Assembly (NCBI GenBank): GCA_964016885.1
Contig: OZ024742.1
Span: forward strand, 114,080,001-114,144,000
Origin: Eledone cirrhosa
Taxonomy: Eukaryota
Direction: 5' to 3'
Length of the DNA stretch: 64,000 bases
The notes beneath the pieces were generated by a model that saw only the letters and a list, made by a program, of their open reading frames with translations, was not told the DNA's origin and searched no databases. The first letter of the stretch is position 1. Each line of letters starts with the position of its first letter. Shown in pieces: positions 38,127-41,748 of the stretch. A program made the position numbers and the translations under genes.

Positions 38127-39411
38127 TGATAAAATGGGGAGAAAAATACTGCTGGTAGCACATGGATAACATGTAATAAAATAAGTCCCTCATCAGTGAT
38201 TTGCCGACGATCATAGATATTTCATTGCATTAAAACTAATATACCTCAGGTCGGTGCAATAAGAACTAAATTAAGTTATTAGGACAATTAAAACGCGTAA
38301 AGCGAGTGAGACAGGAAAACAACAAAGAGTAGAGCTAACCGTAGAGGAAGGAAACAAGCTTCATAGTTATTCTGTTAGCGTAAGCTAGGTGAATATATGA
38401 GCGCTTAGAAAACAGACCTTTCGCAAACGAATGCAATGTAAGAAAGAGAGAAATTGCTTTCGTTACGTACGGGGTGAAGTGAGGAGAGGAGAACCAGTGA
38501 GTGAAAGTGTGAAGAAGAGTTAACTGACACGACAGCGGGGGCGACAGAAAGTAGGAGAAACAGAGAGAATGAGGGAGCCGGAAGAGAGAGAGAGAGAGAA
38601 ACAGAATCGCAGTATAGGTAAATATATGTGAGAAAATGGGAGAAAAATACTGCTGGTAGCACATGGATGACATGTAATAAAATAAGTCCCTCATCAGTGA
38701 TTTGCCGACGATCATAGATATTTCATTGCATTAAAAATCATATACCTCACGTCGGTGCAATAATAACTAAATTAAGTTATTAGGACAATTAAAACGCGTA
38801 AAGCGAGTGAGACAGGAAAACAACAAAGAGTAGAGCTAACCGTAGAGGAAGGAAACAAGCTTCATAGTTATTCTGTTAGCGTAAGCTAGGTGAATATATG
38901 AGCGCTTAGAAAACAGACCTTTCGCAAGCGAATGCAATGTAAGAAAGAGAGAAATTGCTTTCGTTACGAACGGGGTGAAGTGAGGAGAGGAGAAACAGTG
39001 AGTGAAAGTGTGAGGAAGAGTTAACTGACACGATAGAGGGGGCGAAAGAAAGTAGGAGAAACAGAGAGAATGAGGGAGCCGTAAGAGAGAGAGAGAGAGA
39101 AAAAAACAGAATCGCAGTATAGGTAAATATATGTGATAAAATGGGGAGAAAAATACTGCTGGTAGCACATGGATAACCTGTAATAAAATAAGTCCCTCAT
39201 CAGTGATTTGCCGACGATCATAGATATTTCATTGCATTAAAAATCATATACCTCAGGTCGGTGCAATAATAACTAAATTAAGTTATTAGGACAATTAAAA
39301 CGCGTAAAGCGAGTGAGACAGGAACACAACAAAGAGTAGAGCTAACCGAGAGGAAGGAAACAAGCTTCATAGTTATTCTGTTAGCGTAAGCTAGGTGAAT
39401 ATATGAGCGCA
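38127..39411 (-). repeat. Tandem repeat, ~2.5 copies of a 501-506-bp unit with a structured CTGATGA module
   Basis: CATCAG at 38191, 38692 and 39198; high identity between units; flanked by (TA)n. Confidence 0.92.
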
Positions 39412-39425
39412 TATATATATGTATA

Positions 39426-39558
39426 TAGAAGTGGCTACACAAAAGATTGTTCACCCTACCGAGATGAACTAATTGTTGTGTAACAAATTCTACCTAACTC
39501 GTCACATGGACTGAGTTCTCTACCACTACGGCTATTACTTTCCAGTGTTCTACCACTA
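39426..39558 (+). mobile_element. Mini fold-back remnant of the 20626 family (tail only)
   Basis: TGGACTGAGTTCTCTACCACTACGGCTATTACTTTCCAGTGTT matches 42343-42390. Confidence 0.75.
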
Positions 39559-40684
39559 TTTAAATATATATATATATATATATATATATATATATATATA
39601 TATATATATATATATATATATATATCACTGTAACTTTAATTCTAAAATACTACAGATCTCTTATTTATAAAACAAACACAATTTAAAGAACCTTTCCATT
39701 ACTGCATACTAAACTGACCGGGAAAATAACAAAGAACACCCGGATTACACAAGTCGTTTACCAGCATGATGTCACACACAAAAAGAAAAAAACTGAGCAG
39801 CACACATGTTACGCTATTATAGGAAACGGTAATTAACCCAATAATATCTTGATTGATTCACCGGTAAATCTCGACAGAGAGTAAAACTAACAATTTAAAA
39901 AATAATTACATAAAATACAATTTAAAGAATAATTACATGAAATACAAAACGGAAAATGGCAGGATTAGTTCTCAAGATAACGGTCACAGCACAATGAACT
40001 AAAAGACATGACAGCTAAAAATCTCATCAATCAAATTAAACGCTTAATACCTCTTCAACTATGAAAAAAGTGGAACAAATTGAAAATTGTCCTCTAGCTG
40101 ACAAAGACAATGAATGTATTTTCTTCTACATAACATATACCGGCTGCACGTTTGAATAGTTATATCTTATATCCAAGTTTTCGCATATCATATTTATTTT
40201 GTACATATATGTGGTGTTAATCTATCAAACCGACGCAACAATTACTTGCTAACGGTGCATGTCCTCTTCAATGTTTATTATGAATGTTATATATATAATA
40301 AACAACTTCGAAGTATGCAAACTAAACCGTCGTTCGATTATACAATATTTTCCTTGTTTCACAGATATATGTTTTTCGAAAGTAGAATTGGGATGGCGTG
40401 TTTGTGGTTTATGTCGCATCTGTTGCAAATCACATTCTTCCATGCATATATATATATATATATATATATATATATATATATATATATATATTTATTAAAA
40501 TACAGACTAAAGTTTAAGCAAAGGATCGCTTTGCTTAAACTTTAATAAATATATGCTCTCCGGTTCATACATATTTGATATATATTTATCCTCTTTGGAT
40601 TTTAGTCTTCCAATTTATTTATTACTAGTACTATATATATATATGTATATATGTATATATGTATATATGTATATATATATATAT

Positions 40685-41748
40685 GAATAAAGTGGTCCTT
40701 CATCAGTAATCTTCCAACCATCATCGGTATTTCTTCGCTTTAAAGACCATATACCTCCGGTTGGTGCGAGCAACGGCTAAAGAATGTCGTTGGGACATGT
40801 AAATAAAGGGAACAGCGAGAGTGTAAACAAAGAAAGATGGTGAACCAAAGAGAAGTGTGGAAGAACGAGTCAAGTCCCAAATTTCCATGAATATAAGTTC
40901 GGTGAAATCGTGAACGAGAGAGAATAAAGACCATCAAACCTGGTTGAAATGTGAGCAAGGAAGGAATTTCGCACAGGTCTAACGGGAGGAAGATGGGGTC
41001 TAGTCCGTGAATTCGGTAAACATAAGTTCTGTGAAATCGTAGACGAGAGAGAGAAAAAATGCCGACCGGCCTGGCCAAGCGTGCGAAAGAAAAGAATTAC
41101 GCACAGGTCAAACGGGAAGAAGGAGGAGGTGGAGAGGTAGTAACAGAGAGTGAGTGAGTGAAGGGTGAGGAAGAGGCTGACAGAGAGAGTGACTGTTAGA
41201 GAGGGTAAAGATACAGAGAAAGAGGAAGCAGTAAGAACGAAATAGTCGGGTCACTGCGGGGGAAAAACATATGTGTAAATATGAGAATAAACGTGCTGCG
41301 AAGTTGCAAATGGGTTACGTATGAATACAGTGGTCCATCATCAGTGATCTTCCAAACATCATCGGTATTTCTTCGCTTTAAAGACCATATACCTCCGGTT
41401 GGAGCGAGCAACGGCTAAAGAAAGTCATTGGGACATGTAAATAAAGGGAACAGCGAGAGTGTAAACAAACAAAGAGGGTGAAGCAACGAAAAGTGAGTAA
41501 GAACGAGTCGTCCCAAATTTCCATGAATATAAGTTCGTTGAAATTGTGAACGAGAGAGAATAAATACCATCAAACCTGGTTGAAATGTGAGCAAGGAAGG
41601 AATTTCGCACAGGTCTAACGGGAGGAAGAAGGGGGCTAGTCCGTGAATTCGGTAAACATAACTTCTGTGAAATCGTAGACGAGAGAGAGAAAACACGCCG
41701 ACCGCTCTGGCCAAGCGTGCGAAAGAAAATAATTACGCACAGGTCAAC
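40685..41748 (-). repeat. Tandem repeat, ~1.7 copies of a 638-bp unit with ~130-bp internal subrepeats and the same CTGATGA module as the 38-kb repeat
   Basis: CATCAG at 40701 and 41339; repeated CGCACAGGTC.AACGGGA and GTGAAATCGT. Confidence 0.9.

Follow-up and report, generated by a model that had tools for sequence, protein, structure and literature searches.

Which RNA is encoded by a short structured module that is shared by two neighbouring tandem repeats of Eledone cirrhosa? The question is raised by a stretch of 64,000 nucleotides (nt) on contig OZ024742.1 (GenBank assembly GCA_964016885.1; positions 114,080,001 to 114,144,000 of the forward strand), here called the window and numbered from its first letter. 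An earlier note, made from the letters alone, had suggested that the module might be a kink-turn (k-turn) placed beside a hammerhead that is either variant or dead. According to the sequence comparisons described here, each repeat unit holds all conserved nucleotides of a hammerhead ribozyme in a fold with the order cut site (S), GAAA (G), CUGAUGA (C). We consider it likely that the RNA cuts itself once per unit, and that a Penelope-type reverse transcriptase (RT) copies the unit into (TA)n.

Hammerhead core and fold of the module

The S-G-C order of blocks is a non-circular permutation of the hammerhead. Core nucleotides C3-U4-G5-A6-N7-G8-A9 and G12-A13-A14-A15.1 are present in all five copies of the window (three in array A, two in array B, all on the minus strand); the GAAA partner that CUGAUGA was said to lack is found 27 nt upstream of it in each of them. 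The inner helix GGTAT/ATAYC, the tandem G.A pairs, and the 3-nt bulge pointed out earlier are all present, and the inner helix is stem III: its 3' strand starts at the last A of GAAA, and its 5' strand ends in a U followed by an unpaired A, the predicted U16.1-H17 cut site. What appears as the loop of the k-turn hairpin contains the cut site, a strand of stem I, and GAAA.

Stem I is a pseudoknot, in which the six bases 3' of H17 pair with the six bases 5' of CUGAUGA. This pairing is satisfied in four of the five window copies; the exception is A3, which is probably impaired by its stem I mismatches. Stem II consists of the single pair 10.1-11.1, which opens into a junction closed by an upstream strand: the four bases 3' of the pair match upstream GTCC (helix IIa), the four bases 5' of N-GAAA match upstream TYGC (helix IIc), and a hairpin stands between the GTCC and TYGC strands. 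Stem III continues through the 3-nt bulge and the tandem G.A pairs into an outer helix, whose ends connect to the upstream strand and to stem I. Sequence and covariation show stem III, the pseudoknot stem I, the one-pair stem II, the upstream helices with their hairpin, and the k-turn consensus. The full module is 101-102 nt long and extends 28-29 nt 5' of the 73 nt first delimited. Pairing of the unit-B stem I strand with bases 3' of CUGAUGA was tried and rejected; it fails in A, and the upstream GTCC holds in all subfamilies.

A conserved, covarying k-turn module in tandem retroelements, as the earlier note proposed, is supported; its placing of the k-turn beside a hammerhead is not: the k-turn hairpin is itself stem III, and no part is missing from the S-G-C core.

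The k-turn consensus is represented by a canonical helix, a 3-nt bulge, tandem G.A and A.G pairs, and an outer helix. Among 24 distinct copies (see below), G.A is found in 24 (partly set by the search pattern) and A.G in 22 (free of the pattern); L3 is U in 18, and a U.U adjoins the G.A pairs in 10. Box C/D- and U4-type k-turns are bound by L7Ae/Snu13, and share with the module the 3-nt bulge, the tandem G.A pairs, and an L3 that is mostly U; they differ in that the canonical helix is here a hammerhead stem III, and 3b.3n varies between subfamilies. These box C/D-like letters (L3, U.U) would also fit a box C/D small nucleolar RNA-like molecule with UGAUGA as box C and CUGA as box D. Such an RNA is hardly credible here: the D-like strand precedes the C-like one in the 5' to 3' direction, CUGAUGA lies outside the k-turn, Rfam gives no match, and the distant family D (see below) lacks the tandem G.A pairs yet keeps the hammerhead core. 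The comparison with Rfam, which had been proposed earlier, returned no family at the gathering score; at E<=10 only nine microRNA models were returned, all on (TA)n runs.

Covariation in genomic copies

A first set of 31 copies was drawn from window copies and fetched loci; of 34 candidates, the three that carried insertions were excluded. In these copies, 94.0% of cells were paired, compared with 85.7 +/- 0.6 in shuffles (0/500 as high); slid controls gave 28-45%. Two-sided changes were found in 16 of 34 pairs, spread over all seven helices. Stem III was 96.8% paired; stem I 95.2%, with two-sided changes in three of six pairs; helix IIa 96.8%, with G-C replaced by A-U in 11 of 31 copies; helix IIc 87.9%, with C-G replaced by U-A in 6 of 31; and the upstream hairpin 94%, with two-sided changes in four of eight pairs. 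In the outer helix of the k-turn, five of six pairs showed two-sided changes. The nested part of the fold was recovered by RNAalifold on its own.

The patterns used to choose this set fixed GAAA and CUGAnGA, and the test was therefore repeated on loci picked by the 5' half only (a pattern that constrained the 5' strands of stem III, helix IIc, and the outer helix). Of the 30 loci so picked, 26 kept an intact GAAA and 27 an intact CUGAnGA; a deletion was present in one. The 24 distinct copies among them had 510 of 528 cells paired, compared with 491 +/- 2 (0/2000 shuffles as high). Pair 10.1-11.1 was standard in 23 of the 31 and in 21 of the 24 copies, with two-sided changes. H17 was A in 17, C in 7, and G in none of the 24; N7 was T in 21 and C in 3; each remaining core position deviated in at most 2. 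Forty further loci were picked without CUGAUGA: the core was intact in 35, of which 19 had C and 16 had T at N7. The set picked by the 5' half also brought out a new subfamily (L218-L221, L223, L224, L235), which has a canonical G10.1-C11.1 and a differently compensated, GC-rich stem I, and is found mostly as close inverted pairs.

A distant family (family D; L075-L104; 424 pattern matches) retains both the junction and the S-G-C arrangement; its triplets are GUC or GUU (H17 = C or U), and it has C15.2-G16.2, N7 = T, C, or A, and A.C at 10.1-11.1. Its units are about 750 bp long and often form inverted pairs. Tandem G.A pairs are absent from family D; the k-turn is therefore not shared by all families, and family D offers a natural control for what the k-turn does.

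Tandem arrays, relatedness of the units, and copy number

Coordinates of the arrays, the module copies, and the parts of copy A1 are given in Table 1. The tandem repeats described earlier, with five copies on the minus strand, were confirmed with periods of 506/501 bp (A) and 638 bp (B). The elements of the window encode no protein.

Table 1 Features of the two arrays and of the module in the window. Positions are those of the window; parts are listed for copy A1.
Feature	Positions	Strand	Description
Array A	38128..39410	minus	about 2.5 head-to-tail units, 506 + 501 bp; flanked by (TA)n runs
Array A 3' end			62 nt past last CUGAUGA
Array B	40685..41748	minus	about 1.7 units of 638 bp; flanked by (TA)n runs
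Array B unit			carries a duplication of about 130 nt; array ends about 15-16 nt past last CUGAUGA
Module copy A1, full	39192..39292	minus	101 nt; predicted cut 39247/39246
Module copy A2, full	38686..38786	minus	predicted cut 38741/38740
Module copy A3	38185..38285	minus	stem I with two mismatches; found by covariance model, rejected by pairing descriptor
Module copy B1, full	41333..41434	minus	predicted cut 41388/41387
Module copy B2, full	40695..40796	minus	predicted cut 40750/40749; pair 10.1-11.1 is an A.A mismatch
A1 upstream GTCC	39289..39292	minus	helix IIa, with GGAC 39192-39195 just 3' of CUGAUGA-N; closes the module
A1 upstream hairpin	39267..39288	minus	belongs to the junction replacing stem II
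A1 TTGC	39263..39266	minus	helix IIc, with GCAA 39232-39235 just 5' of N-GAAA
A1 block S	39241..39252	minus	stem III 5' strand GGTAT (U16.1 39248), H17 = A 39247, stem I TGATTT
A1 block G	39223..39231	minus	N11.1, GAAA 39230-39227, stem III 3' strand
A1 k-turn bulged strand	39211..39222	minus	3-nt bulge, GA, U, outer helix; partner strand 39253-39261
A1 block C	39196..39209	minus	stem I 3' strand AAATCA, CTGATGA 39203-39197, N10.1

The ungapped match of 38185-38257 to 40695-40767 was reproduced (56/73 identical), as was the compensatory change CCGAC/GTCGG to CCAAC/GTTGG; the best ungapped 73-nt match between the remaining A and B sequence is 43/73 and pyrimidine-rich. The units had been called unrelated outside the module; blastn gives 68.6% similarity across 220 nt (E 8e-14), and by sequence A and B are diverged relatives within one superfamily. 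A diverged piece suspected at 55570-55610 (+) could not be recovered there by blastn (no match at E<1) or by the covariance model (no match at E<=10, filters off).

That the homology of A and B reaches beyond the module would suit a module with no selected RNA function, merely the best-kept stretch of two old relatives; so would the gapped global alignment, in which identity is 72% in the module and 72% in mid-unit (shuffled controls 63% and 69%, an effect of composition). These identity profiles are uninformative because the units are pyrimidine-rich. The two-sided changes in all seven helices already largely refute this explanation, and the same fold recurs in family D and in published Naiad elements (see below) despite different sequence; we regard it as very improbable.

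Three search patterns gave 5474, 9991, and 9831 matches in the genome (reversed control, 0 each). About 10,000 module copies are present, in (TA)n and with Penelope-like ends. An identical 71-mer is present 236 times and therefore indicates recent amplification. The copy number is high, and the 3' ends in (TA)n are fixed: copies end at family-specific distances 3' of CUGAUGA, often two per family and about 40-45 nt apart (family B at +16 or +55; family C at +32-35 or +78-82). The 5' ends are variable, as in 5' truncation. Close inverted pairs of modules are common. A tandem array of family A with a period of about 515 bp extends over at least 49 kb (G000:C1:81545000-81594000); two 10-kb stretches of one array contain 15 and 19 modules at about 515-bp spacing. 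Head-to-tail units, 5' truncation, a defined 3' end with an optional tail, and a (TA)n target are all traits of non-autonomous Penelope-like elements (PLEs) or retrozymes; partial tandems, inverted copies, and an optional tail have been described for PLEs (PMC8557442, PMC11167929). When viral contigs (3 loci) and metagenome contigs (33 loci) were scanned by pattern, no locus showed such a fold; stem scores were at best 5-9/10, with inconsistent spacing.

In tandem, near-identical units, covariation cannot separate pairing within a unit from pairing between units. The core might then be assembled between neighbours, with block G taken from the next unit, in conventional order with very long loops, like dimeric retrozymes; dimeric hammerheads are known in PLEs and retrozymes (PMC4209133, PMC7229834). 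We rate this arrangement as quite unlikely, given the single module at many loci within the fetched 3 kb, the same arrangement in Naiad_Ovul and Naiad_Esco, which are listed without a pseudo-long terminal repeat (pLTR; PMC8557442), and the cleavage of published SGC ribozymes as single short motifs (PMC10085705).

Relation to Naiad elements and to known hammerheads

The order found here was named type SGC for HRIMA-1 and its variants [Eckert et al. 2023, PMC10085705]; such hammerheads have been shown to cleave in vitro, and the design has so far been published only from environmental RNA (metatranscriptomes) and one bacterium (PMC10085705). The module agrees with type SGC in block order, intact core, pseudoknot stem I, and a short linker from stem I to block G. 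It differs as follows: published stem II is a continuous helix of 5-6 bp, and is here one pair with both strands pairing upstream; the published helix joins the flanks of block C, and here the strand 5' of stem I' pairs upstream, in the outer helix of the k-turn; and a k-turn lies in stem III here, with none in the SGC ribozymes described in that paper. In the literature covered, which took in subscription journals and most of the Eckert alignments only thinly, no description of a permuted or k-turn hammerhead in animal repeats was found, and the term type-SGC was found in PMC10085705 alone. The module is accordingly filed as a known core in a known order, like type SGC minus two structural features, with a k-turn/junction scaffold of which these searches found no report.

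Naiads [Craig et al. 2021, PMC8557442] resemble the elements of the window in their (TA)n targets, partial tandem and inverted copies, and optional 3' tail; they differ in being coding. Three published cephalopod Naiads, judged by eye from the supplement, agree with the module: Naiad_Obim and Naiad_Ovul carry, 70-80 nt before their 3' ends, a copy of this fold that includes the k-turn and shares the hairpin loop, and Naiad_Esco ends in S-G-C order. Two other Naiad consensus sequences carry, again by eye, a perfect C-S-G hammerhead in the 3' untranslated region, a second non-circular order in the clade. No canonical hammerhead is described for Naiads in that paper, which flags only 'HHR_core' or 'HHR_half_core' (eight as half cores) and lists Naiad_Ovul and Naiad_Esco without pLTR. 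The window elements are likely to be non-autonomous derivatives of Naiad retrotransposons. A current mobilising enzyme was not found among the Naiad-like RT matches of this genome (78, all old and broken), nor was an exact match to a published Naiad module found in it. PLEs of other clades, with type I hammerheads of their own, are present. PLE frames near modules (L057, L070, L102) were considered and rejected; they are part of a different element, which itself carries a type I hammerhead.

Animal non-LTR retrozymes [Cervera and de la Pena 2020, PMC7229834; Li et al. 2026, 10.64898/2026.07.22.740005] are likewise non-coding, tandem, and derived from PLEs, with one hammerhead per unit and thousands of copies. 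Theirs is type I (C-G-S) and the one found here is S-G-C, which places it outside the published definition; the 2026 screen, as described, used type I descriptors only. Circular RNA has been shown for published retrozymes, and the elements described here are known from DNA.

Truncated copies and weighing of the proposed self-cutting

Start sites of truncated copies were counted by hand in one subfamily group, for copies whose start in (TA)n falls no more than about 30 nt from the predicted cut; starts at +8 were under-sampled by the search patterns. Family D yielded few loci of this kind. Among the matches listed, 145 loci were distributed as follows: +1, 32; -1 to -4, 3; -5 to -20, 28; +2 to +9, 82. 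Twenty of the +1 loci were re-fetched: 11 bear the marks of H17 = C subfamilies and 4 those of H17 = A subfamilies, with 5 ambiguous. Microhomology at +1 could explain the peak where H17 = A; in H17 = C subfamilies it amounts to one base. Since 11 of the 20 loci belong to the latter, cleaved RNA is favoured as template: the distribution favours, and does not prove, truncated copies templated by RNA cut at the predicted site. As a separate observation, one single copy (L232:1530) has a deletion that starts exactly 3' of H17 and resumes downstream of the core.

Several points weigh against self-cutting and Penelope-type copying as proposed here. Besides the choice of the first set by core patterns, the shuffle controls ignore relatedness among copies, and when only nested pairs are allowed, single copies fold no better than their shuffles (z -1.8 to +0.3). 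In 8 of 31 and in 3 of 24 copies the lone pair of stem II is non-canonical; published SGC ribozymes have a stem II of 5-6 bp and require it (PMC10085705). The starts at +2 to +9, the majority among the matches listed, peak in a T/TA run with likely target microhomology; because microhomology explains these other peaks, the +1 peak is only suggestive. None of 30 fetched Naiad-like RT remnants of this genome has a module within 1.5 kb downstream. Finally, hammerhead mutants of another PLE left insertion in vitro unaffected (PMC11167929).

The last point, together with the often mismatched stem II, would also suit a real fold that serves as a protein-binding handle, for a retrotransposon protein or for a host protein on the k-turn, with negligible cutting and the core kept for structure. 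Metazoan PLE hammerheads cleave weakly in vitro (PMC4209133), and insertions end at a fixed distance 3' of the module. Nevertheless, the positions vary as in an active core, since N7 is free, H17 is not G in any copy, and A15.1-U16.1 does not change; starts also peak at the predicted cut; a handle of this kind is judged improbable, and self-cutting is preferred.

Proposed mechanism and its meaning

If the RNA cuts itself, a tandem transcript would be cut once per unit at H17; the ends of the unit-length RNA could then pair again in four helices, an arrangement that should promote ligation to a circle, and a PLE protein would prime reverse transcription of the released, probably circularised unit at (TA)n. 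For published retrozymes, ligation of the ends was obtained with RtcB (PMC7229834). The k-turn would bend the extension of stem III so that it doubles back and its tip meets the distal ends of stems I and II; this bend may replace the usual contact of loop I with loop II. A host protein of the L7Ae family, e.g., Snu13, could stabilise the predicted k-turn.

A further-reaching reading is put forward tentatively, and we would sooner doubt than adopt it: an architecture not yet in print, with an S-G-C hammerhead, a multi-helix junction for stem II, and a k-turn as brace, which would be the hidden ribozyme of Naiads and of their non-coding passengers, switched by a host L7Ae-family protein, self-circularising, and a source of abundant circular RNAs in animals. 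If the main proposal, self-cutting in S-G-C order, holds, a natural scaffold for protein-gated ribozymes would be at hand, and the range of non-circularly permuted hammerheads would grow beyond environmental RNA to take in animal chromosomes (about 10,000 copies per genome). The proposal would also explain why Naiads were scored without the hammerhead of other Penelope-like clades, since standard descriptors are blind to the S-G-C order. The geometric puzzle raised by Eckert et al., in which the far end of stem III has to reach stems I and II, would find a natural answer in this design.

Other elements in the window

On the minus strand, a 524-residue open stretch (33980-35551) lies beside a 502-nt inverted repeat of 98% identity (30169-30670/35552-36053); by its motifs, we take it to resemble the RT and C-terminal GIY-YIG part of a PLE. 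Related pieces are found at 2311-3354, 7194-8280, and 22684-23464. Pfam gave no classification of the PLE-like frames of the window. A second open stretch (53572-54285, minus, 238 residues, no Pfam match) resembles a site-specific non-LTR element at its zinc-knuckle and endonuclease end.

Other hammerhead motifs are present. A conventional minimal type I hammerhead at about 10510-10565 (minus) is identical to the one within the PLE 3' end in L057, L070, and L102. By eye, a type I hammerhead-like motif with a CUGAGGA core and a palindromic stem III, a type that functions in dimeric form, is found at 42261 (plus) and 20764 (minus), and another hammerhead-like family, in which stem III is minimal and an insertion of 11 nt separates the cut site from stem I, at 10168, 43123, and 60675 (plus).

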